A DNA stretch of 63,986 bases, filler included, from Welwitschia mirabilis (lineage: Eukaryota), in NCBI GenBank assembly GCA_051453625.1. It is 5 parts of one record of this genome, joined end to end, with 100 filler letters (N's around TTAATTAATTAA, not from the genome) between each part and the next. Parts side by side here need not be neighbours in the genome. Positions count along the whole stretch, not along the records: positions 1 to 17,534 come from JBOZIK010000001.1; 4 more parts are not named here. The stretch is one strand, 5' to 3'. How positions within the stretch are numbered: position 1 is the first letter of the stretch; each line of letters begins with the position of its first letter. Below the pieces are notes generated by a model. The model worked only from the letters and a program-made list of their open reading frames with translations, was not told the DNA's origin and searched no databases. Shown piece by piece: positions 1 to 62,810 of the stretch. The position numbers were made by a program, and so were the translations under genes.

Positions 1-96
1 ATTGGATCATAATCCAAAATTTGTATTATAAAAGCCTACAACCTAATTGATAAGCTATTTAGTAGTTTTTCCGATCTTGTTTTCCTATTTTCTTAG

Positions 97-531
97 ACCA
101 AAGCATATAGAGTTTGAAATTTATCATAAGAAGTTTAAGAATAAGTGTCCTATAAGTGTATAAACCATTTGATTATGTGAATTAATGGGTTTTGCATTTG
201 ATGTTAATGTAAAAGATGAAGATGAAGTAACTCCCTTACATCTTTCATCAAGAATAAAACATCTCCAAACCATTTAGCTTCTCCTTAGAAATGGATCCTT
301 CATCTATGCATCAACACATCCTAATGGGTATGACATAAAAATTCTTCCTTGCTTTGTAATCTCTCTCAACAACTTTTATGGAGGATATATTTCACTCAAA
401 TCCATCATTTCCACTAATTTTAAATAACCTGGAAGCATCCGTTTATAGCTTGCTGTCAATGTAGGTTATCTAGATATTGCAAGAGAATTGTTGGCTTAGG
501 ATGCAGATTGTATGATAAGAGATTCCTCAAG
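97..531 (+). pseudogene. XB3/XBAT31-like ankyrin-repeat E3 ligase fragment (2 exons, copy A)
   Basis: Manual translation GFAFDVNVKDEDEVTPLHLSSRIKHLQTI*LLLRNGSFIYASTHPNG [GT intron] SIRL*LAVNVGYLDIARELLA*DADCMIRDSS matches the XBAT31-type motif GFARFVNIRD..GATPLHLAAR...STPLHLAARGG.LDCIRELLAWGADRLQRDSSG. Contains stops. Confidence 0.75.
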
Positions 532-1608
532 GTATGTATTTTTTATTACTTTCTCCTCTAAGTCTATAAGTATTGGCTTTTTAAAGGCTTTCTTAAACTA
601 AAAGTGAATCTAGCATATGCTTTCAACTAAAACTATGGATTTCAATCTCATTATGAGTATTGTAATAGCTAGTACACCTAAATATCTCCTAGATGAATTC
701 TCTATGAAGCTACTTTCAAGTACAAACATACTTAATATGCTATCATATTATAGTATATGATTAGATAAAACCTTTAGTTTACAGAAACTTTCCACTAAAG
801 TGACATTTAAATAAGAAGTTTAAAACTCTAATGTTAGTATTTAAACATAATCCATCAAAATTTTAATGAATCAGAAACATGGAAATAATTTCCCATATGA
901 GTTTAAAAATGTGAAGTGCTTTGTAATAAGCATGCTAAGAAAAACCAATGAAATGTACATGAAAATGCATAAAGATTTCTTTAGTTTACTATTTGAACAT
1001 GTACATGTGCCATATGTAAGTTACTTAAATTCATATGTATCATTTTCAGTTTTTATTATATTTTGTAAGATTACTATATTTTTAATTCTTTATACAATAA
1101 TTATCTAAAATAAAATACTCATGTTTCCTCCATATATTTCACTTTTTTTAAACTAATTTCATTTTATTAATTATGGAAAACATGGTCTTAGAATAGGGGT
1201 TGAGCTTCCACTAAACAAAACTAAGGAATACAACAACTAGTTGTCCTCCAAATTTACAAGACAATAAATCATCTCTTCTATTACTAACTAGAGTCATAGT
1301 GTGATAGCTATTTAATGATTTCCATAATATGTTTTTGTTTAAATTGTTGTATAAGCTATGTTGGATAATAGGCATTAGTATGTATTTCATGCTAAGAGAA
1401 ATGAAACTACAAGATCAGGACTAGTCATCCAGTAAATTACATTTACTTACTAAATAAGGTAAGTTTATATTCCAGGATTTTCTATTTATTATATTATAAA
1501 AATTTACTAATTCATATTTAGATGTTAATTATTCTAATAAACCTCATCTAGTATATGTAACATTTAATGTTAATTCTTCATTTTCTTAGTTTTGATTTAA
1601 TTGAATAG

Positions 1609-1779
1609 ATATGCACTAGTCATACAACTTTGGAAATGAACATTGCATGTTATGGGTGGTAGTAAAGAGGATAAACATGAATCTAGTTTAGAGCATTGAA
1701 GCCTTGTAGTAAATGATGGTAAAGCTTTAGAATTATAATGGTTCCTTGAGATACCAATCCTTCATTGTTGTTCGCACAA
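1609..1779 (+). pseudogene. Kelch-repeat protein (At3g27220-like) single-exon fragment, copy A
   Basis: After an AG acceptor: YALVIQLWK*TLHVMGGSKEDKHESSLEH*SLVVNDGKALEL*WFLEIPILH, compared with recalled YAPATQLWRGRLHVMGGSKENRH.P.LEHWSIAVKDGKALE..WR.EIPIPRGGPHR. Confidence 0.75.
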
Positions 1780-2254
1780 ATGAGTAGTAGTTTTTCTTAT
1801 CTCATAAAAGTTAAACTATAAGAGGGATCTCACATTGACTTTTCTCTCTAGTCATTTATCTACATTGATCTATTTTTAATGTCTTTGAAATTCTATTTTC
1901 TAGAATTACTATTATAATTTTTTAATTAAAAAAGAAATATATTAATACTTATGGTTCTCAGCATTTTACTTTCTGCTATTACTTTTTAAAGAATGATATT
2001 ATTCATTACAGAAATCATAAAAAAGCACATTTTGAAGTAGGATTAATACAAAGAATTAAGTTAGCAAAGTTTTTACTGTAGTAGTAGTATCTTCACTTGC
2101 ATAGGCACAGGCTAATTTTTCAAAGGCATTGCTATGGTTCTATAAAAAACACACATGATTAAGAACTTCAAAGATAAAAAAGTACTTTTCTTACTCTATT
2201 ACTACATTTTCTTTGAAGATGATGTCATGTATAACCTGAAGACATCCAAGGGTT

Positions 2255-2878
2255 TATAGACGGTGAGATCCCTTTAATGAAAGATAGTGTTCCTTTTATC
2301 TCTCACATAGTGGTTCTCTAATAAACTTTTTAACAGAGGCCTAATTAGCTTGACTAGAAGAACACTATTTTTATGGGATTTCTGTAATACTTACCTAGCA
2401 TTGGCTTTACTAGCTTTATCTACAATTAGTATCCAGAAATTTAGATATGTGATATAGCCTATTGAAAGACAATTATTTGGTTTTTAACACTTATGTAACT
2501 CATAGCTAAATTAAAAAATTATAGAATAGATATTATAGTTAGAGGAGCAAATGTAAAATCCTTGGGAGGAAATGTGAAAATAAGGAATTTGTAAAACCAT
2601 CATATTTATAAAATCTCATTCTTAAACTTAATTTCTAATCTAATCACTAATCCTTCAATATTTCTTGAGGATTGGTTGTAGTTTTGTGTTATATAACTAT
2701 TACATGAATAAATGTATACAAATATTTGATAATCTCTTAAACATGTAGATATACTTATTAAACAATAGTGGCGATATAACATGCATAGATAGTTACATAC
2801 AGTAATGAATGAAAAAACCTTAGAAAATAAGAAGGAAGAGTATTTATTGCTTTAACTAAATAATAGTGTGAAATCTAA
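2255..2878 (-). pseudogene. Omega-3 fatty acid desaturase (FAD3/7/8-like) 3' fragment, copy A
   Basis: Minus strand ISHYYLVKA (tail of the penultimate exon), an intron, then IKLVKPMLGKYYRNP...ENHYVRD, matching TEAAKPVLGKYYREP...EDHYVSD. Confidence 0.7.
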
Positions 2879-3059
2879 AACTAAAATCTCTTTTAGGATT
2901 CTATGCATAGAGGAACTTTTTATCCTTATTTTCCATGTTGTTCTTCTAGAAGAATAATGGTCAAAGTCTAAAAACTATGGTTGATGGTTAAAAACCAAAA
3001 AAAGCTAGGTAAGATGATGCCCCTCAGATGATTTGAGAGGTTTGCTGAGAGAACCTCAT

Positions 3060-3310
3060 TAGAAGAAAATCTAGGCACAATAGGGAAGAATATGGAGTAT
3101 TTATTGATTTTGGAGAAACCTCCATACTTCTTTCTTACCTAGAAGTAGTGCCTAATAAATTCATTTCATTCAAATGCCTTATCTCAGATATATTCAGAAC
3201 TATCTGAGTGTAGATAGTAGGGAATGTCTGGTTCTAACTAAGAAAAACTAAGAAGCTAAAAGGAGACCAAAGGATAAAAAGCTAAAGATTCTAGATGAAT
3301 TAAAATTTAA
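3060..3310 (+). pseudogene. Possible S1 RNA-binding domain fragment
   Basis: GEEYGVFIDFGETS...EVVP, then frameshifted LSVDSRECLVLTKKN, resembles the S1 consensus (YGAFVD...V+V++VD...+.L+.K). Heavily decayed. Confidence 0.35.
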
Positions 3311-4315
3311 GTAGCTCAAAATATCAAATAGATATAAGAATTCCTATCTAAATATAGGATATAGATTAAGCTTTTTGCACCATAGCCTGTTTACTAGGAT
3401 ATCCTTAATAGATTTGATCTTAGTTAGTTAAACCTAAAGATTAAATTTGATTTGATAGAAGCATAAAAGTGATACGGAGGGAGTGTTCTTGAAGATGAAA
3501 TTATTCCTCTATCTCTAAAGAAAATAGATAAAAGAAGTGAAGGATGCTCGTGTAATATAGGAGTGGAAAGTCCTGGCCTTTAGCTATTTTCAATAAATAA
3601 TAGATAGAAAATCTTACATACCTTGAAAAACTAGATTTTGAGACATGATTATCATTTATGAACTAATTATTTTATAATAATTTGAATTTAGTGAAATTCC
3701 TTAGTTATTAAACATACAAACTTAAGATTATGTCATCTCTTCATAAAACACACATTTAGAACACCTCTTAAGCTGTGGTTCAGATAACTTTACTTATATT
3801 TAAGAATTTTTACTTTTGGCTTTCAAAAAATATTATTAAGTAGCATTTGCTTTAAAATTGAATATCAATAATAACATTTTAATGTTATCTATAAAATGTA
3901 TGTTTCTACTAAAAATAGCACTAAATGATAAACAGGGATAGATAAATGAAATAATGATAAATTTTTCAATTTCACCAAAGTATCCATCACCTTTTTATAG
4001 ATTTCAAATGAACAATTATATCCCTTTTCTTAATTTCTCTTTTTCATGAATTGTATGTTCNNNNNNNNNNNNNNNNNNNNNNNNNNNNNNNNNNNNNNNN
4101 NNNNNNNNNNNNNNNNNNNNNNNNNNNNNNNNNNNNNNNNNNNNNNNNNNNNNNNNNNNNTTATTTGACATTAATGATAGTTTTCATAGGCTAGATTTTT
4201 TCCCTTTTCTACTATTTTCTATTTTATTTTCATCTATCCTTTCAAAATGTAGGGTTTTGAAAATAATAATAAGCTATTCAGTAGTGTTGCTAATCTTGTT
4301 TTCCTATTTTCTTAG

Positions 4316-4699
4316 ACCAAAGAATACAAAGTTTGAAATTTATCATAAAACATTTAAGAAGAAGTGGCGTATAAGTGCATAAATCATTTAGTCATGTGAA
4401 GGAATGGGTTTTGCATTTTATGTTAATGTAAAAGATGAAAATGGAGTAACTCCCTTACATCTTACATAAAAAATGAGACATCTTCAAACCATTTACCTTC
4501 TCCTTAGAAATGGATCCTTCATCTATGCATTAATACATCTTGAGGGATATGACATAAAAAAGTCTTCCTTGCTTTGTACTCTCTCTCAGCAACTTTTATG
4601 GAGGATAAATTTCATTCAGATCCATCTTTTCCACTAATTTTAGGCAATCTAGAAGCATCCCTCTACATCTTACTGCTAGAGGAATTTATCTAGATATTG
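4316..4699 (+). pseudogene. XBAT31-like ankyrin fragment, copy B (truncated)
   Basis: VNVKDENGVTPLHLT*KMRHLQTIYLLLRNGSFIYA...SIPLHLTARGIYLDIV. Diverged duplicate of about 97-480, cut at about 4699. Confidence 0.75.
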
Positions 4700-4702
4700 T
4701 TG

Positions 4703-6060
<1,358 letters not shown>

Positions 6061-6769
6061 GTTAATTATAATCACAACAAAGTTCTTTGTAACAAGCATG
6101 TCAAAAAGGACCAATGAAATGTACATGAACATGCATAAAGATTTCTTTAGTTTACTATTTGAGCATGTAAATGTACCATATGTAAGTTACTTAAATTCAT
6201 ATGTATAATTTTTAGTTTTCCTTATATTTTATAAGATTGCTATATTTTTAGTTATTTATACAACAATTTTCTAAAATAAAATATTCATGTTTCCTCCATG
6301 TATGTCACTCTTTTGAAATGAATTTTATTTTTTTAATTATGAAAAACATAGTCTCAGAATAGGGGTTGAGTTTTCAATGAACAAAACTAAGGAATACAAC
6401 AACTAGTTATCCTTCAGATTTACAAGATAACAAATTGTCTCTTCTATTACTAACTAGAGCCATGGTGTGATAGCTATTTAATTATATCCATATTATGTTT
6501 CTATTTGGATTGTTGTATAAGTTTGACAATAAGCATTGGTATGCATTTTGTGATAAGAAAAATGAAACTAAAAGATCAGGACTAGTCATCCAGTAAATTA
6601 CATTTTACCTACTGAAGAACGTAGTTTATATTCCAAGATTTCCTATTTATTGCATTAGGATACTTCACTAATTTAGCTTTAGATGTTAATTAATCTAATA
6701 AATCTCATCTAGTTTATGTAACATTTAATGTTAATTCTTCATTTTCTTAGTTTTGCTTTAATTTAATAG

Positions 6770-6934
6770 ATGTGCACAAGTCATAAAACTTTGAATTTCT
6801 CATATTATTTGTGGTAGTAAAGAGGATCAACATGAACCTGCCTTAGAGCATTGAAGTATTGTAGTAAAGGATGATAAAGCTTTAGAATTATAATGGTGTC
6901 TTAAGATACCAATCCTTCATGGTGGTCTGCACAA
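6770..6934 (+). pseudogene. Kelch-repeat (At3g27220-like) exon fragment, copy B
   Basis: GSKEDQHEPALEH*SIVVKDDKALEL*WCLKIPILHGGLH, bounded by AG and GTGAGT. Confidence 0.75.
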
Positions 6935-7439
6935 GTGAGTATCAATTTATCTTATCTTTTAAAACTTAAACTATAAGAGGGTTCTCACATTGACTTTTAT
7001 CTTTAGACATTTACTTACGTTGATATATTTTTAATGTATTTGAAATTCTATTTTCTAGGATTACTATTATTTTTTAATTAAAAATTAATTTATCAGTACT
7101 TATGGTTCTTAGCATTTTACTTTCTACTACTACTTTTTGAACAATGTTATTATTCATCACAAAAATCATAAAAAAGCACATTTTAGATTAGCATTAATAT
7201 AAAGAGTTAAGTTAACAGAGTTTTTACTATAATAGTAGTATCTCCACTTGCATAGGCACAAGTTGATTTTTAAAAGGCACTGCTATTGCATTATTATAAT
7301 TTTTTCACTAAGTATATTTCTAGAGATAACACACATGGTTAACAACATCAAAGATGAGGAAGTACTCTACATACTCTATTACTAGATTTTCTTTAAATAT
7401 GATGTCATGTACAATTTGAAGACATCCAAGGGCTTATAG

Positions 7440-8881
7440 ATGGTGAGATCCCTTTAATAAAATACAATGTTCCTTTCATCTCTCACATAGTAGTCCTCTG
7501 ATAAACTCTTTAACAGAGGCCTAATTAGCTTAACTAGAAGTACACTATTTTTATGGGGTTTCTATAATACTTACCTAGCACTAGCTTCTCTACCTCTGTC
7601 TATAATCAACACCTAGAAACTTAGATATGAAATATGGCCTATTGAAAAATAAATGTTTGGTCTTTAAAACTTCCATAATTCATAGCTAGATTCAAAAAAT
7701 TATAGAGTAGAGATTATAGTTAGAGGAAAAAATGTAAAATTCTTGATATGGAATGTGAAAATAAGGAATTTATAAAACCATCATATTTACAAAATTTCAT
7801 TCTTAAACTTAATTTCTAATCTAACCACTAATCCCTCAGGATTCCTTGAGGATTGTTTATAGTTTTGAGTTATATAACTATTACATAAATAAATGTATAT
7901 AAGTCTTTGATAATCTCTCAAACATATAGATATACTTATTATATAGTAGCGGCCATAAAACATGCATAGAAAGTTACATATAGTAATGAATGGAAAAATC
8001 TTAGAAAATAAAAAGGAAGGGTATTTACTAATTTAACAAAATAATAGTGTGAAATCTAATGGAAATAAGTGGTGCACAATGTATATACTATTATCATGAT
8101 AGATTTTGTTGAAGATTCCATAGTCCATGTCAAGGGTGGAAAGTCCTTCTCTCAAATAGATCCATTCATTTTCAAATTACACTAGGCATAAAAACTTATC
8201 ATTTTAATTATTTTTGAAAAAGTTATTATAAGGTATAGACTTTACATATCCAAAAGATTAAAAATAACTAATAAATTGCAAATGATGTGAAATTGCAAAT
8301 AGTGTGATTAATGTTATTTTTCTTTATACCATAGTACTTTTTGCTTATGTCCATGATTATGTTCGTAAGTGATCAAATCTAATCATCCCATAAATACCTG
8401 TTAAGAAAGAAGGCAATAATAAGGGGAGCTAAGAATTTAAATTCTAATGTTTTTATTAGTTCCGTCCATAGATCTCATAATCAAAATGAAAGGATGTAGA
8501 GAGATGGCACTCAATTGATTTCCCTAGTCTGGAATCAAGTACAACTTTTAAGATCCATAGGGGACTCATGACTATGGTACAATCCCTGAGTATATATGCC
8601 ATGATAAAACAACAGAGTGTTGAATTTATAACATCTTTTCTTTCACTTGGATTAAACAGATTTAAGTCTAGATCAAAATGTTATCCTTCTTTACTAGGAG
8701 AGTTGTACATCTATTCTTAGACATTAATCAATATTCTTAGTAGCACAGGACATAGCTTGTTAAATTATAGATATCTGAGATTCCTAAAAAGGTATAGAGA
8801 AAATGTAAACAACTACCATGGGATAGTGGACCTTCAAATCTTAGTGCCTTCAGGCAGGTTCTTACATACCTTCTATGTAAG
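7440..8881 (-). pseudogene. Omega-3 fatty acid desaturase (FAD3/7/8-like) fragment, last five exons with introns
   Basis: Minus-strand exons in native order: [132 protein letters not shown]...SEDYYVRDERNIVFY. Confidence 0.85.
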
Positions 8882-10749
8882 CTAATATAAAATAAAAACA
8901 TGACTAAAATAGATAATGTCCAGTATTTCCCTACTTGTGAATAACAAGTTAAAATGTTTTTTCATAATGTGTGACCTCTTATATGCCTTGAAAAACTAGA
9001 GTTTAAGACATTGATTGTCATTTATGTACTAATTATTTTATAAACATTTTAAATTTAGTGAAATTCCTTAGTTATTAAACATGAAAATTTAAGATTATGT
9101 CATCTTTTTATAAAACACACACTTATAATACCTCTTAAGTTGTGTGTTAGATAAATTTACTTATATTTAAGCATTTTTACTTTTGGCTTTCAAAAAATGT
9201 TACTAAGCAACATCTAATTTAAAATTGGATATTAGTAATAATACTTTAATGTTAGCTATAAAAAGTATGTTGCTACTAGAAAAAGCACTAAATAAGAAAG
9301 AGGAATAGATAAATGGAATCATGATAATTTTTTTAATTTCACCAAATTAGCCATCACCTTTTTATAGATTTCAAATGAACAATTATATCCCTTTTCTTAA
9401 TTTCTCTTTTTCATGAATTGTATGTTCTTCATTATCCTCTAGTATTTTTTGAGTGATATTTCTTTATTTAGGGACCTAATTTCAAATGAAATACTATATT
9501 TATTTTTTCTTTTAATTTATGGGTGGCTTGGGAATGTTGTGTTTCTTATCATCATCTTCTAAGATTACACTTCTAAGATAAAAAATACTATTTTCCAACT
9601 CTTGGTCATTAATTTCTTATAAAGCACTCTCATCAAAGTAGATTCCAAGAAATAGTAGATGACATAAGGCTTTTAATGGTAAGAACATTCTTGAGTAGTC
9701 AACTAGACTCATTAAAATGAAAAAAAAAAGCAACTTTATTTTGAGTTTAGCAATACAAGAAATATAATACGAATTGATAAAGTTCTATTATCTAGAAGTT
9801 CATCTATCAAACTAGTTACTAAATTTAGACTCAGTAATGTCTTATAATTATTCATAACCTACTATTCTTATTCATCTAGATCTAGCTGATGTTGACTAAC
9901 TACTAAATTCTTAGGAGAAGAGGTTAAAGTAGAATCTCTACTTGAGTTGTAAGAAGATGCATTAGTTATTCCCCATATGAGCTTGTGAGTATCCTTCTGT
10001 AAGGCATGCTATTTGAAGACCTTTCTATATTTGTTATATGGGGATTTTCTATCTATCATTGCTCTAATAACTTTTGATAATCATAGCATGAAGGTTTTTG
10101 GATAATGGCTTAGCCTAAACCATTGTTTAATGGTTGTTTCTCTACCTTGAGGAGTGTTTCTATTAAAATAGGCTCTACCTCAAGTCTCTGTCGACCATGT
10201 TCTTTTATTGTTGAAAGTGAAAAACTAATAATGTAGCTTTGTAAGGCATCTAAATGAGATCATGCATCTAGTTTATGGGCATGATCAACAACATTATAAG
10301 AATTGAAGGATACAATCATATTGTGTAACCATAGTAGGTGGCTAGTGCTCTTCATAGCTATGCTAATGAAGAATACTCTCAAATTTATTACTCTTTACTA
10401 CCCAAGCACTTAATCGACATGCTTAAAAATGGATAGTAATGTTTTTGTCTTAGGTTATACAAGCCAAATACATTACACCATAGCACAAACCTCATGGGAC
10501 ATGTCCATTATGTGTAATAAATTTGAAAAGTTATTAATCTTAAATTAATAAATAGATGATTTGTTATTTCTCTTAAATATCCTACTGGTTGTGAATGCAA
10601 TGATACCTTTTTGCTTAGCTATAATAATATCTCTCTATGATACTTTCTCTTAAACTATTATTAGACACTTTGTTATCTTTCTAAATTATGATATGAAAAT
10701 TTAACTATGATTATTAAAACCTAATTGTGATTGTTGATTATTATCTTAG

Positions 10750-10806
10750 GTACACATAGAGTACTTAGAAGCAAGGGCTGATATAATGGTTATAGCTTCT
10801 TATTAG
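10750..10806 (+). pseudogene. Homocysteine S-methyltransferase single-exon fragment
   Basis: AG|VHIEYLEARADIMVIASY*|GT, compared with plant HMT VHMEYLEAGADIIVTSSYQ (Gln codon read as TAG). Confidence 0.65.
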
Positions 10807-11199
10807 GTATATGATAATCCTATTTATTTTATAACAATTCAGATTGGCTTTGGATTTATCTTTGCTTATCTTACTCAAGTAGCCTATGAGAATCATCTTT
10901 AATTCTTTTTTATTTTTTAATCTTTTTAATCATCAAAATAAGTCTAAACACTTGAAGATATAAAAAAGGCCATCACAAACAAAAAATAGAGAGATATTAC
11001 TTAATAAGATTAGTAGATATCAGTTAAAGTTGCATTTATTTTTTGCACAAAGATTAGAAATTAAAAAAAAACAAATAACTGATTGCACATTAGAAAACAG
11101 ATGTTGATGCATTTGTTTTATTATTTTTTTCTAGGTAACTCCTTTCAAGGTGTTTATTTGATAAACATCTTCAAATAGCTTTTGAGGAATTTTTTAAAA

Positions 11200-11450
11200 T
11201 AAATTCATTAAATGGCCTTTTGCAACATTTGTTTGAATAAATGCCTAAGATGTTTATTTAAAAAATTACTGTAAAAGACCTATTAAGGCATTTCTTTGAA
11301 AAACACCTTAAAATCTATTTTGAGACATTGTTATTAAAATACCTTAAAAATGCCTTAAGGTGAAGTTTTTAAAAGCATTTTGTGAAGAAATGCCTTAAAA
11401 GCATTTAAGGCATTTTTTTAAGACCTTTAAATCTTGTATTTCTTGTAGTG
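11200..11450 (-). repeat. CACTA terminal inverted repeat plus subterminal repeat array
   Basis: TIR at 11439-11450. Variants of AAATGCCTTAA/TTAAGGCATTT occur in both orientations at about 11240, 11283, 11301, 11340-11360 and 11388-11415. The next 3 bp (ATC) are the expected TSD. Confidence 0.8.
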
Positions 11451-11981
11451 ATCCATCCTTTCCAAGCTTGGTCAGTAGGTGTAAAAAATAATATAATAAG
11501 ATCTAATAAATTATTTTAACTACATGAGACAAAAAACATGAGTAAATACTTTAGATCACATATAATTACTATTGCATGAATGAAATAAAGTTAAAAGAAA
11601 TCTATATCAAAGGTGCAATTAATTTTTAACATAAGTCAAGTGATCCAATGTTAAATTGCATTAATAGAAAAACATTTGTAAGCAATAGTGTGTTTCATAA
11701 TCAAATTAATCTTTCAATTAATTAACTAAAATAAATAAGTTAATCTTTTAATAAATTCTAAAATAAATAATCGTGCAAATACCTAGTTTAACTATTACTT
11801 TTATTCCATATATTATTATTTTTAAACAATTTGAAACTAGACTTATTATTATTATTATATTTTTAATATTTAATTATTTATCCAAATTAACTAAGAAGGT
11901 TTTTTAAACTTAAGAAAATATAGATGTGATAAATCTCTCTGCCTTAAGAGGTCTTTTCCTAAAAATGTATTAGTAGCTCAG

Positions 11982-14900
11982 TGTTTCGATGCTGATTTGT
12001 AGGAATTTGATGGTGTATTTGGAGTACTTTTGCAGGACATTTATACAAGTTTAGATGCAATTCTACTAATTATGAAGAGATGATAAGATGATCATGAAAG
12101 CATGTAATTCTTGGCATAATTGGAATCATTTCAGGCATGATCTGATACTTAGCATAATAAAGGAGAACTAAAGGTAAAGAAGACCAGTTTACGCTACTTG
12201 AGGAGCTTGGAAAGAGTGTCGTTCCCACTATCATCCCCATGATAGAGGGGACGATAGCTTATTATGTGGATAAAGGCTGAGGCATCGACAACATCACATG
12301 ATGATAGAGCATCGTCCACCATGTTGTCTGGATGACTGACAAGACAACCACATGAGTAACATGCGATCACAACCCATAAAGCTAATGGTATCACATTGGC
12401 ACACAATCCAAGACAAGAAGGTTGCATCGTCCCCACTGTCATGTGGATGACTAACAGGACGACAGATGATTTTACATATCCACAATAAATACTATTGTAA
12501 ATGGGGTCAAGTAACTCATGTGGGTGACTAGGGTTTTCTTAACAGATTTCTAGGTTATGATTCATTGTAAAAACTATAAATACCCCTTCCCTCCTTCACT
12601 TCCAATCATCTTTTGACTTGATATGCTTGTGACGGAAGATTGAAGGTAGGAAGTCCATCCAATAGTTGCAGAAAGGGGTTTTCTTGGTGTTAGGCTATGT
12701 CTCTTCCATTCAGGAGCTGTTATTCTATTATAAGTGAATGTAAAGTTCTTTTGATTAATACAAATACTCTCTTTCACTCCCATTATGTGAATGTCCCTTA
12801 TGGTTTAAGTTCATCTTAGTTATTGACAATCTTGGATTTATTTTGATCATGAGGGAAACCTTTGTTAAGGCTGACCTTGGTTAGTAATAGGTCTGCATTG
12901 AATTTCTATTTCATTCATATTTCATATTGCATATTTTACGTGGTAGATCTAATGGTTTATGTTAATTAAGAATTAGTAGATACTCTTATTGATTGATGTA
13001 AATTATAGAAAAGATAGTCTTTATGACAGAAAGGCTAGAATCTAGTCCTTATGACAGAAGGATTAGGATCTAAGTAGAATCTCATTTCCATTACCATTCA
13101 TTTGCATATCTTCATTTATCTTACATTGCATTCACTTTACTATTTCCTTTTAGTTAAGTAAAAGATAAAATACCAAAACTACCTTTGGAAATAAATTTTC
13201 TAACTCTAAGCCTAGTGCCTTCATTGGGATTATGACATTCAGGTGAATTCTCGTCTATACTAGCGTGTGTCTTTTTGTAATTTATATGATTTACATGTTT
13301 ACCTAAGGATTTTAAGATTGTATAAATTCGTATCGCAACATTTTGGTGCCATTTTCGAAGAAGGCCGCAAAGAGCTAAGAGAATTGTCATTAATCACATA
13401 AGTACCTTGAATCTTTTTGTTTAGGTTATTTATTTGAATTAATGTTTTATTTCTAGCGTATCTTAAGGTAGATTTATTTTTTGCAAAATTTTATTTTCNN
13501 NNNNNNNNNNNCATCTAGACGACATAGGGTACGATAATTCTAAAATTTTGACTTTAGTTTCTATTTTTGCAATTTTTCTTTTGTTTAGAGTTTACTGTCA
13601 TCCTATTTGTCATCCAGACGACGAGGTGGATGACAGTCTTAGTTTTAGTAATTTTCTTTTGGTAGTTTCTAAAGTTTTGTTGTTTTAGAGTTTAGTCTTT
13701 CTGTGATTGTTATCCAACCTGTCATCCCCACGATAAGGTGGACGACAGTCCATTACATTTGATTCTGATTTTTTTTTTTAATGTTTGTGCATGTAAGGAT
13801 ACAAAAAATTATGGATGAAAGATGAATTATCAGCCAGCAAGGAACTAGATTAACAGAAACATCAAGAATTATTCAACTTTAAATAAAAATCCAGGTATGC
13901 ACAACACAGGTACGTAAATTCTAAAATTTATTTTTTCTATCTTAGAATTAGATTTTCTTTTTTCTGTATAGTTAATTTGCAATAATGATGTTACATCTTC
14001 TGGGGTATTAAGAAATAGCAACCTCAAACATCCAAAAACATTAACCTTCATTATGTACCTCTCTTCCTTATCATTTTGAATTTAGACTCTCTTATTCTAT
14101 NNNNNNNNNNNNNNNNNNNNNNNNNNNNNNNNNNNNNNNNNNNNNNNNNNNNNNNNNNNNNNNNNNNNNNNNNNNNNNNNNNNNNNNNNNNNNNNNNNNN
14201 NNNNNNNNNNNNNNNNNNNNNNNNNNNNNNNNNNNNNNNNNNNNNNNNNNNNNNNNNNNNNNNNNNNNNNNNNNNNNNNNNNNAACCTAATTATTCTTTT
14301 CCCTCTTCTTTTCAAACCTCATATCAAGATAATGATGAAGATTCACCATTTTTTAGGGATTCCACCTCATTTAGACAAACCTCTTGCAATCATCTTTCTC
14401 AATCCCAATCATCTTTCATGATTTACTATCACGAAGAACCATCTCCCATCAACTACTAGGAAGAATAAAAAGATCCATTAAGAGAAATTATTGGTGAAAT
14501 GACGAAGAACCAAGAAAACACTAATAAAAACTTAAAAAGATTAGTTAAAATCTTACAACAAAACCTATTAAATATTCAAAGATCTTTCACAACACAACAT
14601 CCTCATAACCATTCCACTCCATTCTATCTTAAGGAAAATGATGAGAATGATTCTTGCTTTCAACTTGAAGATGAACGTATAAATCAAAATTTAACATCCT
14701 ACTCATTAGGAGATAATAAAAAACGGTTATAATAATAATATAACTCAACATGTCAACAATTGAGATGAAGATAACCACTTAGTAGAAGATGATATTGAGA
14801 TATTAGATTATATCCCTACCATTCATCTTCTATTAGATAATTAAGAGGAGGAATCTAATCATGAGAAAACTAAAAATTTTTCAACCAATGATGAAGATGA

Positions 14901-17534
14901 TATTATTTCTCTTAATAATATTTTTAATGAATCTAATCATTTAGAGAGTGAAAGTAATCTTTAACAAGAAAAGGAAGATATAGTTACAACTAATGAAGAT
15001 GAAAGTACAATCAACATGGATACTAGTGAAGAAATTAAAAGTAATGAAGGACCCTTAGAGATTCATTCCAGCTTCATAGAAAATAGACTTATTCATTCCA
15101 CTCATGCTTCTACATTTTCCTCATCTATGCCTTCACGTTCAATTACAAATCACATCCTTCTATCCAATCCCCCTTCACTTCTATTTCCACCTTTACATTA
15201 CCTCCTAACCTTGATAATAATTATCTTTCTCCATTCCTTTCAATTACACCTTCATATAATTCTCAAGGCCATGTTCCTTTTCTTGACTCTCATAACATCC
15301 ATCACTTTGAAGATTCTATTTCTTGTATTTCTTAATATTTTTCTTCTAAACCTTCATTTAATCCTTAAAGTAACATTCATTCTTTTTCAAAGTCTATTAT
15401 ATCTTATGTTTTTAATGATTATTCTTTTCAAAAGTTTAACTTAGAATATCTTGGAATATTGCATTAGGGAAATCCTTATCTTCTTGATAGTAATCCATGC
15501 TTAGAGTTAAATCTTAAAGATCTTTTCAATCTTATTAAACATTTTCAAAAGATCTTCAAGATTTCTTGCATCCATTCTATGAGTAGTACCTTGAATGAAT
15601 TATCTAATGATACTCATACTTTATACTATCTTTATAAGAGATTACTTATCAATCAAATTTATCACTTCTTTCTCTCTTATTTAGACTCTGAAATTTGTGC
15701 TCTCAAAGTTTTATCATTTTACTTTCTTTATTTCCAATTAATTTTACTCTGAAATGATTAGATATTCTTTATGTTTCATCAATTAGTTTCTGTTTGGTTT
15801 GACCATTATTTTTCTGAAACATATAATACTTAAGTAAACTTTTGATATAACTAGTTGAACTTCTCAATGATTTGGTTCTTATCTTTCCAAAAAAGTACAA
15901 TTTAAATGACTGTGTTGAAACTTTCAATTTGAACACTTAGGAAATTCAAAAGTTAATGGATAAAAGGTTAAGCATCATTGACATATCTATTGATTAACCT
16001 TGAGCATGATAGAAGTACTTATGTTGGAATTTTTTTTTACTATCATTATCTAAATTCTTCTTTAGTCGATTTCTTTAGTAAATGTCATGCTATCACTTAA
16101 ATATTTTTAACTTGATTAATATTTTACTTTATGAAGTTACCATGATTACTAAATATTTTACTTGGGAATTTTTAATGATAAGATTAGCTTCAACTAATCT
16201 TCCAACATTTATATGTCTATGAACTTTATTTTTAAGGAAGATGTCTTGATTCTTTTGTTTTCTTTCAATGGTGTGAGTTGTTTTAGCATGTTCTTCCTTA
16301 TTATTTATCTCCTCACTTCACTTTTATCCTTATGAGTATTTGGTCCTGTGAAATTTATGTATCAAAAGAAAAAGAAAAACAAATAAAAACAAAGACAAAA
16401 AATATATATATATATAAAATAAAGGTCATGTTCTTTCATGTTCTATCTTATAAAATGGCCCTCATGATGTCCTACTGTAAGTGCATCAGGGCAAATATTC
16501 TTAACAGAAGCCTTTGGTAGTGTGATATTGTAGCTGTGGGAACTCCACTGGGGGGTCAGTTGGCCATGCTATGCAGGTTCTTACTCCTCTGATAGTGGTT
16601 GTACTCCCCTCATCATGGTAAGAATAAAATTGCAATTAGAGGCTACGAGATCAGTGGTGTCCCTGATATCATCAGAGGCATTGCTTGTTTTCTAGACTTA
16701 TTGTTATTTATTTATAGTACTTCCACATGCTCACTTTACTTTTCTCGATTCTAGTGTTGTTTTGAGATGATAGCTTATAAGTTCCTATTTTAACAGCTTT
16801 TTATCTTATCATTCATTATTTAATAACATCAGACATACTTGACATAGTCATAATCATTGCCCATTCGAGTGGAACTTTATGATTTTTTTCATTACGTCAT
16901 GCATTCTTATCAGGTGATTTTATGATTTCTTCTAAAGGACTTTGCTAAAGATTAATTTTGGATAGGTAAGCAAATCTTCTTCATGTTCCTAGTTGTCTAT
17001 TTCTCATTATGTTTTTCCTTAATTGTTTTGTTTGGAATTTTTCAAAGTCATTACAATATCTTTTTCTACATCATAATTAGAACTTGGTCATTTGATAGCT
17101 CTCTAGTTGTCTTTTTATTTTCACTCATAGGTTTTCTTTATAAGGGCTATTTTTCTTTTCTGCACTATNNNNNNNNNNNNNNNNNNNNNNNNNNNNNNNN
17201 NNNNNNNNNNNNNNNNNNNNNNNNNNNNNNNNNNNNNNNNNNNNNNNNNNNNNNNNNNNNNNNNNNNNTAATTATAACTTGATTATTTGGTAGCTCTCTA
17301 GTTGTATTTTTATTTTCACTCTATGGTTTTTATTTTTAAGGGTTATTTTTTCTTTTCTGCACTATTAATTAATGCATTTCTTCCCCTTTCTTGGTATGAT
17401 CTTTTTGTTTTATGCTAATGTTTTTGCTATGTGGTTTTATAGTTTTGCATTCATCCACTTACAGCTTTTTAAGCAATCATGGATTCTAGACCACATTGAA
17501 GAACTACTTATGAGCATTTCTATATTTAATGCAT
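11982..17534 (+). mobile_element. Athila-like Ty3/gypsy element, apparently non-autonomous; 5' LTR 11982-13340, 3' end lost at a scaffold join
   Basis: LTR termini TGTTTCGAT...ATCGCAACA. Decayed Athila-type PBS TGGTGCCATTTTCGAAG at about 13344. No pol recognised in the internal region. Its 16200-17500 segment matches 61660-62710 in reverse orientation. Confidence 0.75.
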
Positions 17535-17634
17535 NNNNNNNNNNNNNNNNNNNNNNNNNNNNNNNNNNNNNNNNNNNNTTAATTAATTAANNNNNNNNNN
17601 NNNNNNNNNNNNNNNNNNNNNNNNNNNNNNNNNN
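17535..17634. other. Artificial scaffold spacer (also at 31147-31246, 58743-58842, 62711-62810)
   Basis: Identical 44 N + TTAATTAATTAA + 44 N; the 12-mer has stop codons in all six frames. Confidence 0.95.
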
Positions 17635-19499: not shown

Positions 19500-22400
19500 A
19501 CATAAGATGTGAGTATAAAATTACCTTTCTAGAAACACTTGCAAGAAAAGTTCAAGTATGCTAAGATGTAAAAGGATTTAATAAGGAAAAAGCAAAAACT
19601 AATAACACCTACTTGAGTTTTTATGACATAATCTATCTCTTACTTAATTATTCAAAAGTCCCCAAATTTAAAGATTCTTGGGATGCAACTATAAGTGTTT
19701 TATTAGAAGAAAGTTAGAAAATTAAAAAGGATTTGATCGATATTTTGAATCTAGTATAAATGTTATGTTACTTCACATATGGAAAACATTTAGATGAGAA
19801 AATGGGATATAACCAATACCAATTCTATTAAAGCTATCTAATACAACCATTAAAATATCCATAGAAATTATCAAATATTTATTAATTTAAATTAAAAAAA
19901 TCTTATTACCTACTCAATGTGGTCATGATTGAAGTAAAGTAAAAATGATGTTACCATTACTTTTAAAAGAGTCATTTTATGCTATTGCACATTATATCAT
20001 AGATACTCAAATTAGTATGATGGAATGTCATATTGGTAATAATAAATTTATGATAAGAGCATTTAATGTAGTGAGAATGATATAGAGGATGACTTAGAAA
20101 TCAATAAAAACATTAAATTAATGATGTTCATCCAACATCATCCTATGGAAGAAAATATCTCAATCTTACACAATAAATCCTTGAGTGATAATTATTTTAC
20201 ATTTTTTAATATTTTAGGTAGTTTATGTGTTTCAAGATTTTAGATAGTCATAATTCTTTAAATCCTTATGACTATAACAATGATCTTTTATGCAATTATC
20301 AATAATGAGAAGTGCATGATACTTTTAAAATCCTCACTAAGATTAACATCAAATAAGTGCTATTTATTAAATCCTTGTTTCACCTAGATAGATGTACACC
20401 TTCTATGAGTGATAATTATGAAATTTAGCCTAAATAATTACCAAATTATTTAAAGTACATCTCCCTTTATGATAACCCTAAGAAACTATTTGTGATTAGT
20501 TAGCATCTTTCTCCATAATAAGAGGAATCCTTTATTGAACTTCTTCAATTCAAAATACATGATTTTCATTGGATTTAAAAAGATTTGAATTCAATTCCTC
20601 CCTCTATTATTTAACATAAATTTATTTAAAGGATAATGCTAAATCAATTAAGCAACCCTAAAGAATAATAAATCTAGTCCTTAGGATCATTAAACTTATG
20701 GATTCTAGAATTATCTATTGCATTTTGTATAATGATTTGATTAGTACCAATTTATAGTACCAAAGAAAGATGAAAAGTGATGTGTACGTATAAATCTTGA
20801 AAACTCAATGATATAAAAAAGAAAGATCATTATCATTTTCTTTTCTAGATGAAGTCTTTTATCACATACAATATCACTCATATTATTGTTTTCTTGATGG
20901 TTATAATAATTATAACCAAGTCTACATAGCTAGTGAAGATTAAGTCAAAATAATGTTTACCTAATTCTTTGATACTTTTGTATTTAGGAGAATACTCTTT
21001 GTTTTATGTCATGCAATAGGTACCTTTCAAAGATCCCTAATGGACATTGTTTAAGATGTGATTAAAAAATCCATTGAAATTTTTGTGGATGTTTTTTCTA
21101 TCTTTGGGAATTTATTTAAACAAAGTATGAAAATACTAGAATGAGTTTTAAATTATTATATTAATTGTGGGTTCAATTTAAGTTGTAAGAAAATACATTT
21201 CTTAGTAAAATAGGGTACTATGTTAAGCCATCATATGTATAATAAAGGCACAAAAATGATTCTAATAAAAGTTAACATCATATATACTCTTCTCCCGCCT
21301 ACAAATGTTAAATAAGTAAGATCTTTCCTTCAACATGTTATCATAGATTCATCCAAAATATGTTAAAAATTTGTAAAGTACTCTACATCTTCCTTATGAA
21401 ATAAGTTAAATTGGATTAGAATAAGAATTTTCAAATATCTTTTAAGGTATATAAACTAAACTTACATCTAAACTATTATAGAAGGACCTCATTGTGTTAA
21501 GTTGTATTGCCAAATTGATGTTAAACTAACATATTTAGTGTAGTTTAATATGTTGTAAATATTTCAGAAAGTTAAACTCCTTACATGTTAGAAGTAATCT
21601 AACATTTTTTTACTAGTTTCATATGAATCTAAAAAGTGACAGAGCTCTCAAATAATTGATCAGATCCCAAAGGGGTCAATCAAACCTATATCAAAAATTG
21701 TTTGATCAATTTATTAAGGGGTCAATCTGATCCTAGTAGGATCAACTAGATCTATGCTAAAAATAGTTTATTCATATCAAGTTGATAATGGATCGACTAG
21801 ATCAAAATGGGATTGACCAGTTCTAGGCCAAATGTGGTAGACTAAATTCTGCATGGGATCAACTGGACTATGTTACATAAGGAAATTAGGTCGACCAGAA
21901 GAAAATTAGGTCAATTGACTTTAGTAATACCAACCAATGGGGTTTACTAGATGTTTTGAGGGATCGACTAGTTGTAGTGAAAACAGAACTTTTTAGTATA
22001 TTTTCTAGCCATCTCTTCTATTTTAAATTGTTAAAGTATTAGATTCATTTATCAACCCTGGAAACCTAACTTATATATAAGCCAAATGAATTAAAAACCT
22101 TACATCAAACTTTTAACCAAAACAAAATAGACATTTGTGTAATGTGGAAATTTATTAGTTGAAAGACTACACTGTATGATCTTGTACTTATAATCTTATC
22201 TTCAAATAGTGTATTCTCACTTTACTTGCACTTCAGATCTGATGGAGCTAGTGCATTCAGGCATACTATTATCACCAAAATATTTTCTCTATAAAGGTTG
22301 AGGATTATCCTTAAAAACTCTATTTGTAAAGGTTGCAAGTTGACCTAGAAACTTGGAAATAAAGCAACAATGATTTGAATCATCTTAAGATTAAAGCTGA

Positions 22401-25400
22401 TAACTAAGAGTGGAGTAGGAAATTTTCTTGAACCACTAGAAATCATTGTGTCTAGTACTCTTTCTTGGTATTTTTTATTTTAGTTACTTTCTTACTACTT
22501 CATTCATCTAATTTTATTTCTTTTAATAGTAGTTAGTTCTTATTTCAAATGCATTAATTTTTGGTATAACTTTTAAAGGATATTTTTTAAACCTATTCAC
22601 ATTGTTCCTATAGGGTTTGTAGATCCTTTATTTGATATAGGTCCAATCGACCCCTTTGGAATCTAATTGATTCCTTAAGAGCTCTATCACTTTTCAAGTT
22701 CATATGAAACTAGTGAAAAACATTGGATTACTTTTAACTCATAAGGACTTTAAATTCCTAAAATATTTGCAACATATTATGCTACACTAGATATGTTAGT
22801 CTAACATCAATTTGATAATATAACTTGACAATATTTCCCTTTGACATTGATGGCAAATTATATTTGATTATATAAAAACTTGTTAAGCTTATGTAGTAAA
22901 CTCCCTCTCGTGCTATGCCCACAAGGAACTTAGAGTATTTAAACAATATAACATTTTTAATTTTTCATATATATTCATAAGTTTTGTAAAAAATTATCAT
23001 CATTTTAGATTCTAGTTACATCACAAGCTTGAAACTTTAACACCCATGTCTTTCATTAGTTGTCCCACTCTATCCACATGCATATTTTCTTAAGAACTGA
23101 AAAACCCTCAAAATATCCTTCTCCTAAGTAGACCTCTTTTAAAGAAACTCTATTATACCTAAAATGGCTTGAGTCACATACCCATCACATGAAGGAGGAT
23201 TTTATTATAACTAGTTATAAAATTGAAGATACTTCTATGGACGCTGGTAGCTCTTAGCACTAGGTAATAGAAGAAGAAGAACAAGAAGATCGAGATTCTA
23301 AAGAAGAAGCTAAGAAAAAGAAGACGTTTGAATAGTCCTTCAAGTATTGTTGTTTTTTCTCCTTTATCATTGATGTACAAAGGGAAATAAAATAGTCTCT
23401 TTTAAAAAGTAGTCTTTGTAATGTATTATTTTTTCCCCAGTATGGTTACTGTATAAAAATCAAAACTCAATTGTAGTTTATCTATTGAAAGCTGTTATCA
23501 GTTGTACTACTTATTTTTGTTAAAATAATGAATATTATACTTCTTGTAAAAATTATGAATATATGTGAAAAATGAAAAATTTTATATTATTTAAATACTT
23601 CAAGTTCCTTGTGGGCATATCATAAGGGGAAGTTTTCTACATAATATTAACAAGGTTTTATATAATCAAATATATTTTTCCATCAATGTCAAAGAGGAAG
23701 ATTGTTAATTTCTATTACTAAATTGATGTCAAAGTAACATATCTAGTGTATCATAATATTTTTTAAATATTTTAATAAGTTAAAGTCCTTATAGACCAGA
23801 AGCAGTCTAATGTTTTGTACTAGTTTTGCGTAAACCTAAAAAGTAATAGAGCTCTTAAGGGGTTAATCAAATCATATATGGGATTGATTAGAGCTATGAT
23901 AAATATATTTGTTTCATATTGAATTGATAAGAGTTAACCAAATCAAAATGGGATTGGTCGGACCTAGACCAAATGTGGTCGACTAGATTTTAGATGGGAT
24001 GGACCAAACTATATGACATAAGAAAAGTAGGCCAACTAGAATAAAATGGAGTCAACTAGAAGAAAATGTGGTTGAGTAGATGGTTTAAGGGATCCATTAG
24101 TTATAGCAAAAATGGAACATTTTAGTGTATTTTCTAACCATTATCTCTTCTATTTCAAACTGTTAGAGTATCAAATTTATTTGTTAACCCTAAAAACTTG
24201 ACTTCTATATAAGCTAAATGAATCAAAAACCTTGCATAAAATTTTTTATTAAAAAGAAAAAGGATATTGGTATACTACAAATACTTATTAGTTAAAAGAC
24301 TACACTATATGAGCTTTTACTTGTAATCTAATTTGCAAATAGTGTATTCTAACTTTGCTTGTGCTTCAGATCTGACGAAACTAGTGCATTTATACCTACT
24401 ATTCTAACCAAAAGCTTTACTCTCTAAAGGTTGAAACTTAGCCTTAAAAAGTCTATTTGTAAAGGTTTTAGGTTGACTTAGAAACCTGAAAAGAAAGCAA
24501 CAAGGATCTAGATCAGCTTAGGGTTGAAGCTGACAGTTGAGAGTGGAGTAAGAGATTTTTGTAAACCACTATAAATCATTGTGTTTAGTGCTCTTCCTTG
24601 ATATTTTTTATTTTAGTTATTTTCTTACTACTTCATTCATCTAATTTAATTTATTTTGATATTAGTTAGTTCTTATTTCAAATTCATTAATATTTTGGTG
24701 TAATTTTTAAGAGGTAAATTTTAAATCTCTTCATTCCTTCCTTTCCTCTTCTCCCTCCAACCTAAATTAAAAAGGTTTATAGATCCTTTATATTAGACTA
24801 AATATCTTAAATTGATGTGTGATACAAGTAACATAACCATAGGTTATGTGTTAGGATAAAAGTACAAGAAGGGATACAAAGTTATAAGTTACACTAGTAA
24901 ACTTCTCTTTATTATCCAACTAAATTATACAACCACTAAAAAAAATGTTAATAGTTATATTCTTCTTAAATAAACTTAGACACTACATTCTTAGATTTTA
25001 TATTAATGTTTGTACTAATCATGTTAGTATCTACTATGTTATGACTAAGAAAACCTCTATTTCTATACCAATTAGATGAGTTTTATGCATGAAATAATTT
25101 AATCTCACCATCATAGATAGAGTAAAAAACATAATTGTATTATAGATCATTTATCTCTTATTCCTTAATAATATAGAATCCTCCATTTCTATCCAAAATT
25201 TCCTATTAATGGTACCTTTCTTGATGAGTAACTCTTTGACAAAAACATCTCTACTTTGTCTCTTTCTCTTATATAACTCCATCATATGTAAACATTGTAA
25301 ATTACTTATTTACCATGAAAACTCCTTGACGTTAGACATGTAATCAAAATAAATCTTTTCTCCATAAAACAATGAGATTATAAGTGGCATGAACCATAGT

Positions 25401-54897: not shown

Positions 54898-55122
54898 CTT
54901 GCTTACCTGATTAAGATCTGTAAATGTTGAAAACCAAGGAAATCAGGAGTTAACAGAATCTGAACATGTTGTTGCTAAGAAATAAAAGTTGAAAGCATTC
55001 CTGCTACTCGGGGTACTGCATATCATCATAACCTCCATATGATGAACTACTCTTCCCTTTCAATCAGCCTGAAGCCATTAACATTTTTCATTTCTGTAGT
55101 CCATATTACTTGGGCTGACTCA

Positions 55123-62710: not shown

Positions 62711-62810
62711 NNNNNNNNNNNNNNNNNNNNNNNNNNNNNNNNNNNNNNNNNNNNTTAATTAATTAANNNNNNNNNNNNNNNNNNNNNNNNNNNNNNNNNN
62801 NNNNNNNNNN

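Follow-up and report, generated by a model that had tools for sequence, protein, structure and literature searches.

A CACTA-type right terminus adjoining a two-module mosaic of gene fragments in Welwitschia mirabilis: a possible Pack-CACTA-like element

The stretch of Welwitschia mirabilis DNA analysed here (63,986 nucleotides, hereafter the window) contains a genuine CACTA-type right end at positions 11439–11450, adjoining a low-copy block in which three or more unrelated plant genes are represented by broken, intron-bearing pieces on both strands. That a single gene-collecting transposon encloses all of these fragments is plausible. Our tentative interpretation, whose chances we put a little short of even, is a Pack-CACTA-like, non-autonomous cargo element with its right end at 11450 and its left end lying off the window or lost. 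The features concerned are listed in Table 1.

Table 1. Features of the terminus and of the block to its left (window coordinates)
Feature	Position	Strand	Remarks
Module U1	50–4060	+	Right side cut by the gap; longer ankyrin piece, last FAD exons only
Ankyrin-repeat gene fragment	173–558	+	In-frame stops; Pfam Ank, E 6.6e-05
Assembly gap between the modules	4061–4160		100 N; true size not given by the N count
Module U2	4269–9427	+	Ankyrin piece, kinase cassette, backbone B, FAD cassette, backbone C
CRK/DLSV-type receptor-kinase fragment	4694–6102	+	Kinase domain only; several exons with introns; U2 only
Omega-3/FAD-type desaturase fragment	7448–8881	-	Five exon blocks
Low-copy stretch between module U2 and the family-shared end	9428–10539		Low depth
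Family-repeated part of the end, common to other genomic copies	10540–11450	-	From contig depth; inner edge approximate
Subterminal repeat region	11140–11423		Direct and inverted copies of the AAATGCCTTAA / TTAAGGCATTT motif
CACTA right end	11439–11450	-	12-bp terminal inverted repeat CACTACAAGAAA; plus-strand reading TTTCTTGTAGTG

The terminal inverted repeat (TIR) has a single exact match in the whole window, at the right end itself, and the 27-nt terminal string has no second match in the window at up to 3 mismatches. The subterminal zone consists of ∼300 bp of AAATGCCTTAA-type repeats, with families D1–D6 and inverted pairs I1–I25. All four exact window copies of AATGCCTTAA fall within 11283–11414, and 18 matches are found when one mismatch is allowed. 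Since these repeats lie to the left of the terminus, the body of the element must also lie to the left, in agreement with the canonical terminus and orientation originally predicted. The features of the CACTA (En/Spm) superfamily, a CACTA terminus together with direct and inverted subterminal repeats, are thus present at the one end seen. The core motif CACTACAA occurs at 9 sites in the window, compared with 1.95 expected, and only that at 11443 is accompanied by subterminal repeats or by a partner whose ends match. The flank outside the terminus starts with ATC, and the right flank alone falls within the window. A metagenome scan with the 22-nt terminus gave 0 matches.

Distinct differences in copy number are seen between the terminus and the block. 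Across 10888–11460 the contig depth, summed for each of three DNA runs (X1, X2 and X7), is 850, 771 and 473 respectively, whereas in the 19 bins of 1–10887 it spans 10–82, 6–59 and 0.2–14; contigs of depth ∼120–160 cover position 10548. This contrast indicates that the terminus belongs to a repeated family and that the block is low copy. The family-shared portion comprises the terminal ∼0.6–0.9 kb and the terminus is at least 95% identical to numerous other copies, whereas the cargo is present in about one to a few copies. The stretch at 9428–10539 has no Pfam domain in six frames and no homology elsewhere in the window.

The DNA to the left of the terminus is contiguous for 7.3 kb (4161–11450), and extends to 11.4 kb if the 100-N gap is crossed; public contigs reach 80 and 302 nt into this gap. 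The block of at least 11.4 kb in the original prediction is one that spans this gap. Rather than a single simple cargo, it is built of two modules, U1 and U2, in direct orientation, which are 86.7% identical over 2831 aligned sites (K2P distance 0.148). In blastn comparisons, segments 4269–4699, 6080–8059 and 8977–9427 of U2 match U1 at 85–88% identity, and the intervening DNA is replaced in one module or the other. In U2, the cassette at 4700–6079, a 1.38-kb kinase piece, stands where U1 has 434 bp of ankyrin sequence, and the cassette at 8060–8976, which carries the 5′ exons of the FAD gene, is found only in U2, with 733 bp of other DNA in its place in U1. The U1-specific cassettes, at 480–913 and 2879–3611, are unrelated to U2, and the second has no Pfam or PDB match. 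Each module has had one internal cassette replaced since the modules split. A simple head-to-tail tandem duplication was considered for the modules and rejected, as neither the spacer at 4161–4268 nor positions 1–49 match anything after U2.

The original prediction listed five captured genes, of which the CRK-type kinase and omega-3 desaturase pieces are borne out, as is the piece named XBAT31-like at the broader level of an ankyrin-repeat gene, with the predicted introns and with both strands represented. The other two, kelch and HMT, find no support in Pfam searches of 109 ORFs (at least 33 aa, E ≤ 1) or in six-frame read-through at E ≤ 0.01, and the HMT candidate matches nothing in Pfam or PDB at E ≤ 10. 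The ankyrin piece aligns over residues 4–47 with 312 PDB ankyrin sequences at E ≤ 0.1. Its counterpart in U2 stops abruptly in mid-exon at 4699, and exactly there, to the nucleotide, the kinase piece begins.

The kinase fragment (Pfam Pkinase, E 4.5e-14) coincides with the cassette at 4700–6079 and spans, by tblastn, residues 170–476 of the 522-residue protein P0007; its relatives bear PF01657 together with the kinase domain. RNA reads of expressed paralogues are 95–99% alike to the piece, with loose ends at exon edges, and at the intron at 4791–4919 they continue into the upstream exon. Judged by this level of similarity, the kinase piece is much younger than the split between the modules. 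The desaturase fragment has its 5′ exons in the cassette found only in U2 and its last exons in the shared backbone B, where their U1 counterpart is at 2369–2416. A 47-residue FAD exon gave 184 phmmer matches at E ≤ 1e-3 (best 4.7e-11); FA_desaturase was present in 8 of the 10 matches scanned, and DUF3474 as well in 5 of them. A word-indexed protein search with the exon at 8459–8680 (minus strand) returned 9 candidates, none scoring. Transposase domains are absent from 1–11451, as had been predicted; six-frame read-through against Pfam finds Ank and Pkinase only, and the 109 ORFs agree.

The observed/expected CpG ratio is 0.09–0.10 in the block, compared with 1.2 in a TIM23 gene of the same window, and at each of the seven listed sites where the kinase piece departs from the RNA reads, the window has A or T and the RNA has G or C. 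Together, CpG depletion and A/T-ward differences are what would be expected of transposon-like DNA that decays while silenced. Transcripts of the locus were not found: no RNA data set was listed as containing the stretch, and of 36 reads from one RNA run none was at least 99% alike. The block appears to be silent now, and to be decaying through methylation-driven C-to-T change.

No left TIR is found in 1–11420, where the best candidate has 19 matches in 30, and we conclude that the right TIR is not part of a small separate element, a possibility that the original prediction had itself raised. The sole plus-strand TIR-like site, at 9751 (CAATACAAGAAA), is rejected as the left end of a short, intact element closing at 11450; it agrees with the terminus at 15 of its first 18 positions and at 19 of 30 overall, lacks a subterminal cluster, and is flanked by TAG compared with ATC at the right end. 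A possible insertion of the terminus into a huge repeat on its right was also considered, as an argument that would force the left end beyond the low-copy block. This argument fails because the other copies of the repeat in the window begin at 11988, separated from the terminus by a 537-bp AT-rich spacer.

Several lines of evidence favour the Pack-CACTA-like element. A real terminus from a repeated family is joined without detectable break to a low-copy mosaic, in which three intron-bearing fragments are butted together; there is neither a transposase nor a left TIR within the DNA searched; cassettes have been replaced twice, independently, since the modules split; the block decays as a silenced transposon does; and rival carriers were not found in our searches. 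Terminus and mosaic are both covered by one explanation, for which Tgm-Express1 and Arabidopsis Pack-CACTA provide precedents. The absence of transposase and the presence of host coding-gene fragments are as in Pack-CACTA elements, the status of these fragments as interior hinging on there being both ends. Such an element must, however, exceed 11.45 kb (or 7.3 kb, should the gap be a mis-join), with its left TIR and target site duplication (TSD) unseen, and no clean presence/absence joint removing the block occurs in the three DNA runs. One X2 contig does link position 104 to position 11435, with one additional base; it may represent either a deletion derivative of this locus or another copy of the family.

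A different reading, with an appreciable probability that is nevertheless well below even, is that a solo or truncated CACTA end of ∼0.9 kb (10540–11450) lies beside an unrelated two-module pseudogene mosaic. The CACTA body would have been lost by incomplete excision or later deletion, and the mosaic would be an old segmental duplication, its gene pieces derived from filler-DNA break repair or from an earlier carrier. Family-shared depth does cease ∼0.9 kb in, with all DNA further inward being low copy, a pattern that fits a truncated solo end equally well and so counts against the larger element. The same is true of the missing left end in 11.4 kb and of the module edges, as no CACTA terminus or subterminal motif is present at the module starts (47–50 and 4266–4269). 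The modules are 13% diverged, whereas the terminus is at least 95% like many other copies, which would allow the end to be of far more recent origin than the mosaic. One-ended deletion derivatives are frequent, being described as common products of Pack-type elements, and in rice 2151 Pack-MULEs are one-ended compared with 2853 intact (PMC6379663). Gene-fragment duplication is also reported to be widespread in gymnosperms (PMC13477047), and with gene fragments so abundant in these genomes a chance adjacency would not be rare. Against this, a solo end requires that two unrelated rarities, a tight mosaic of at least three genes and a transposon end, should adjoin, and the DNA between them shows neither a break nor a second terminus nor another repeat. 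Moreover, that cassettes were replaced twice within 5 kb points to a break-prone, transposon-like interior.

It is improbable that the mosaic is instead the cargo of a Helitron, Pack-MULE or large LTR retrotransposon, with the CACTA end as a later neighbour or nested insertion. In the LTR variant of this proposal, U1 and U2 would be the two LTRs and the internal part would lie inside the 100-N gap. Two direct repeats of 4–5 kb do flank a gap of nominal size, the homology of the modules may be taken to start with TGATAAGC in U1 and TAATAAGC in U2, making a TG start possible, and LTR retrotransposons dominate gymnosperm gene capture in the account given by PMC13477047. No gag, pol, reverse-transcriptase or integrase domain is visible in 1–11451, however, the 108 bp preceding U2 include no clear polypurine tract, and the copy number of the block is low. 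For Helitrons, whose termini the original prediction had named as the competing boundary of the cargo, both strands of 1–12000 contain no GC-rich hairpin with CTRR, as judged by perfect 6–8 bp stems with at most 2 A/T pairs, a criterion that degenerate ends could escape. Nor are there long TIRs (∼100 bp or more) of the Pack-MULE kind, the longest inverted pair in 1–13000 being 35 nt at 74% identity.

An assembly artefact, either a scaffolding error at 4061–4160 or one at the join between terminus and mosaic, is very improbable: the draft is fragmented (2544 N in 18 runs in the window) and the inter-module gap is a round 100 N, but 4161–11450 is free of gaps, contigs from X1, X2 and X7 show 0–4 differences over pieces across the block, and modules 13% apart are not collapsed haplotypes.

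If the block is indeed the interior of a Pack-CACTA-like element, the gene pieces may have been captured in several steps from genomic DNA, together with their introns. The ‘delete and fill’ replacements would fit repair of an internal break or gap with template switching to other loci, and the tandem direct modules could reflect local reinsertion in the same orientation followed by terminal deletion, as in Arabidopsis Pack-CACTA. A more specific proposal is that of a still-acquiring gymnosperm Pack-CACTA of more than 11 kb, both of whose modules swapped cassettes by gap repair with template switching, the latest swap bringing in a whole receptor-kinase domain a few percent removed from expressed CRK genes; this we regard as rather unlikely. 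Were it true, one could follow at this locus, step by step, the assembly of a multi-gene mosaic by a CACTA element.

CACTA elements that carry gene fragments are known in soybean, Ipomoea, Arabidopsis, maize and rice, and the kind itself is therefore not new; to our knowledge, elements of this sort have not been individually described in this gymnosperm lineage. Should both ends be found, the locus would provide a concrete and unusually large gymnosperm example, in which paralogous modules that differ by cassettes give a before-and-after view of capture, with one event datable against the expressed donor family. It would bear on how Pack-type elements acquire DNA, whether by fusion of neighbouring elements or by repair with template switching. 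On the alternative that only a solo remnant of the end survives, the locus amounts to commonplace debris of pseudogenes and transposons.

The Welwitschia end shares its 12 terminal bases, and its use of short subterminal repeats in two orientations, with maize En/Spm. That element is an autonomous CACTA, whereas the Welwitschia block has no transposase genes in 11.45 kb and an interior of host-gene debris. Arabidopsis Pack-CACTA elements are a few kb long. They have two TIRs and 3-bp TSDs (PMC6379663). Like the Welwitschia block, Arabidopsis Pack-CACTA1 (Catoni et al. 2019) is non-autonomous with genic cargo, and it has the same CACTACAA core TIR (PMC8903248). Its tandem direct copies and one-ended derivatives, described as steps in capture (PMC6379663), resemble the modules and single end seen here; its capture proceeds by fusion of neighbouring elements, whereas the Welwitschia cassettes look like delete-and-fill. 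The packFinder procedure, as described, discards singletons (PMC8903248).

A close likeness in cargo is to Tgm-Express1, a soybean CACTA element of 5.7 kb that has CACTA ends, no transposase and five intron-bearing fragments of unrelated host genes (PMC1947982). Both ends and mobility are documented for Tgm-Express1, whereas one end is seen here, in a gymnosperm host, with at least 7.3–11.4 kb of DNA, two diverged modules, three verified fragments and, by the RNA read count given above, no transcripts found. The genome paper of Platycladus orientalis (2026) describes gene-fragment capture by transposons as widespread and ancient in gymnosperms; in the available portion of its text the named examples are LTR retrotransposons, with Pack-CACTA appearing in the reference list only (PMC13477047). 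The legume frame of reference adopted in the original prediction was mistaken, as the best named relatives of the TIM23 gene in the window are from conifers, at 69–77% identity.

The most instructive feature of this locus is a pair of direct modules with swapped cassettes, U1 (50–4060) and U2 (4269–9427), in the block to the left of a CACTA terminus (1–11450). This two-module structure is new relative to the original prediction, in which the block was a candidate Pack-CACTA element. The modules share a three-part backbone (86.7% identity overall, K2P distance 0.148 over 2831 aligned sites), with unrelated DNA between its parts. The ankyrin exon continues beyond 479 in U1 and is cut at 4699 in U2, where the kinase fragment starts, and we conclude that a 1.38 kb piece of a kinase gene took the place of 434 bp of an ankyrin gene. 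In U2 the desaturase (FAD) fragment is unbroken over the 8059/8060 border; U1 has only the last FAD exons (2369–2416), with 733 bp of other DNA in place of the earlier ones. This distribution of exons indicates that the ankyrin-FAD mosaic is older than the module split, after which each module went through one delete-and-fill replacement. A plain tandem duplicate was rejected, since neither the 108 bp preceding U2 nor the 49 bp preceding U1 has a match elsewhere. Close to the right edge of U2, a minor local duplication repeats the 28-nt motif that ends the module (9368–9395) 111 bp on (9479–9506, 79% identity). A 100-N gap (4061–4160) cuts U1 on the right; of a block put at 11.4 kb or more, only 7.29 kb (4161–11450) is surely contiguous with the terminus.

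Features of the stretch; summed contig depths from runs X1, X2 and X7 give orders of magnitude only, not copy number
Feature	Position	Strand	Evidence
Ankyrin repeat fragment	173–558	+	Pfam Ank, 6.6e-05
CRK-type receptor kinase fragment	4694–6102	+	Pfam Pkinase, 4.5e-14
Omega-3/FAD-type desaturase fragment	7448–8881	-	five exon blocks by tblastn
Backbone match	U1 50–479 = U2 4269–4699		85–88% identity
Backbone match	U1 914–2878 = U2 6080–8059		85–88% identity
Backbone match	U1 3612–4060 = U2 8977–9427		85–88% identity
Unrelated DNA between backbone parts	U1 480–913, 2879–3611; U2 4700–6079, 8060–8976		
CACTA terminus CACTACAAGAAA	11439–11450	-	sole exact match in window
Subterminal repeats, AAATGCCTTAA-type motif	11140–11423	direct and inverted	packed
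Block interior	1–10887		summed depth in 19 bins: X1 10–82, X2 6–59, X7 0.2–14
Terminal region	10888–11460		summed depth: X1 850, X2 771, X7 473
Extremely high-copy repeat family	11988–17168		contig depth
Same family	26611–27350; 27703–27839; 60492–60757; 61785–62710	-	
Repeat pair	21714–22599 with 23855–24733	direct	
Repeat pair	22629–22985 with 23548–23905	inverted	
TIM23 (Tim17/22/23 family), intact, apparently intronless	46672–47241	-	GC 50%
WEMBL (weak chloroplast movement under blue light) coiled-coil gene	52846–54942	-	three long ORFs; PF05701 in Pfam, lowest E 1.1e-32

Six-frame Pfam scans of 1–11451, with stops read as X, matched Ank and Pkinase only, as did a scan of 109 ORFs of at least 33 aa at E≤1; the predicted absence of a transposase holds in both. 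Of the five gene fragments proposed (XBAT31-like, kelch, omega-3 desaturase, CRK-like kinase and HMT), three were recovered, as ankyrin repeat, CRK-type kinase and omega-3/FAD-type desaturase. Kelch had no Pfam match in the block, and the HMT candidate (1643–1798) had none in Pfam and nothing in the PDB at E≤10. Residues 4–47 of the ankyrin fragment align with ankyrin repeats of many structures in the PDB, where 312 sequences fall at E≤0.1. Relatives of the kinase fragment combine PF01657 with a kinase domain (best identity 79%), conifer and Ginkgo CRKs being numerous among them; residues 170–476 of one 522-aa relative (P0007) map by tblastn to the fragment. A 47-aa desaturase exon (8036–8176) matches 184 proteins at E≤1e-3 (best 4.7e-11); FA_desaturase was found in 8 of 10 matches scanned, five of which also carry the N-terminal domain DUF3474.

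The kinase capture is far more recent than the module split. All 36 RNA reads on the stretch, from one oligo-dT run, are 95–99% alike (none reaches 99%) and nearly all lie over the kinase fragment. Their loose ends at 4920 extend into the upstream kinase exon, with ...GGFGTVYK immediately before 4920, which identifies 4791–4919 as an intron and the reads as products of expressed paralogues, not of the block locus. At each of the seven listed differences, the RNA has G or C where the window has A or T. The CpG observed/expected ratio falls from 1.2 in TIM23 to 0.16 for the kinase cassette and 0.09–0.10 for the block, and we infer that the block is silent, methylation-decayed DNA. In most of the X1 contig depth (24.9 of 33.5) an extra T follows 5567, which would put the kinase exon halves (GYMAPEYAIQGQ / STKADVYS) into one frame; this depth suggests several near-identical CRK paralogues rather than the block locus.

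The terminus is a real CACTA end with subterminal repeats, as predicted. All four exact copies of the AAATGCCTTAA-type motif in the 64-kb window lie within 11283–11414, and the element body is on the left, where it had been placed. Within the window, the terminal 27 nt are unique at ≤3 mismatches. The 8-mer CACTACAA occurs nine times in the window (1.95 expected; 0 of 100 shuffles reach nine); sites other than 11443 have neither subterminal repeats nor a matching partner and may be decayed CACTA ends.

Contigs from three public DNA runs, aligned over 1–17168, have individual depths of ∼3–10 in the block, and position 10548 already lies under contigs of depth ∼120–160. These depths indicate that the terminal 0.6–0.9 kb is shared by the many copies of a family and that the rest inward exists in one to few copies. 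To the right (11461–17168) summed depth is 5,600–85,600. This high-copy repeat does not prove an insertion: three in-window copies share the edge at 11988, which leaves a 537-bp spacer between it and the terminus. ORFs tried in the repeat gave no protein domain.

A Pack-CACTA-like element, complete or one-ended, is our tentative preference, somewhat short of an even chance. It is favoured because the CACTA end is the sole transposon terminus in reach and faces the mosaic with no intervening break, and because the interior, with its two cassette replacements, would seem prone to breaks. A close-packed mosaic of unrelated intron-bearing gene pieces is the hallmark of Pack-type cargo, as in Tgm-Express1 (PMC1947982) and Arabidopsis Pack-CACTA (PMC6379663). 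The reading is weakened because only the right end is seen, without a second end or TSD, because the family-shared part ends 0.9 kb inward, and because the modules seem older than the end. The starts of U1 and U2 have no CACTA features. In 1–11420 no 30-nt stretch matches the terminus at more than 19/30, and the one TIR-like site, 9751, lacking subterminal repeats and a matching flank, was rejected; the alternative that the TIR belongs to a small separate element was thus not borne out. Contigs of the three DNA runs contain no joint marking clean excision, the joint sides being only 20–24 nt. One X2 contig (depth 7.6) joins 104, in U1, to 11435 with one extra base, and so to the final 16 bases of the CACTA end; this contig represents a deletion derivative of the locus or else a different family copy in which the subterminal sequence resembles 85–104 by chance.

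A solo CACTA end adjoining an unrelated mosaic is a serious possibility, if a less likely one. In rice, one-ended derivatives almost equal intact Pack elements in number (2151 against 2853; PMC6379663), and gene fragments abound across gymnosperm genomes according to a survey of TE gene capture (PMC13477047); both weaken the Pack-CACTA-like reading. Among the literature matches listed for Pack-CACTA, that survey is the sole gymnosperm paper, with the term in its references only. Another class of carrier, including an LTR reading of U1 and U2, is unlikely: the Helitron termini raised as an alternative did not appear, with no GC-rich hairpin in 1–12000, and the longest inverted pair in the search for MULE-type TIRs (1–13000) is 35 nt at 74%. 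An assembly artefact is very improbable. The kind of element is already known, and the Pack-CACTA-like locus is at best a new example within it.

The draft sequence of the window is AT-rich (GC 21–41% in 2-kb steps) and fragmented, with 18 N runs that total 2544 N, and its very low GC and CpG depletion are presumably reminiscent of gnetophyte genomes. Of 3225 candidates, 591 match TIM23, led by a transcriptome protein (85% identity), followed by Araucaria (77%), Cryptomeria (69%) and angiosperms (≤68%); conifers being the best named relatives, these matches place the window in a gymnosperm, not a legume, and one to which none of the named species in the database is close. A pattern of 44 N, 12 bases and 44 N occurs four times (17535–17634, 31147–31246, 58743–58842 and 62711–62810) and looks like a masking or scaffolding artefact, not ordinary gaps. 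Repeats of 78–82% identity, both direct and inverted, cluster at 21495–24733 and are probably another rearranged transposon.
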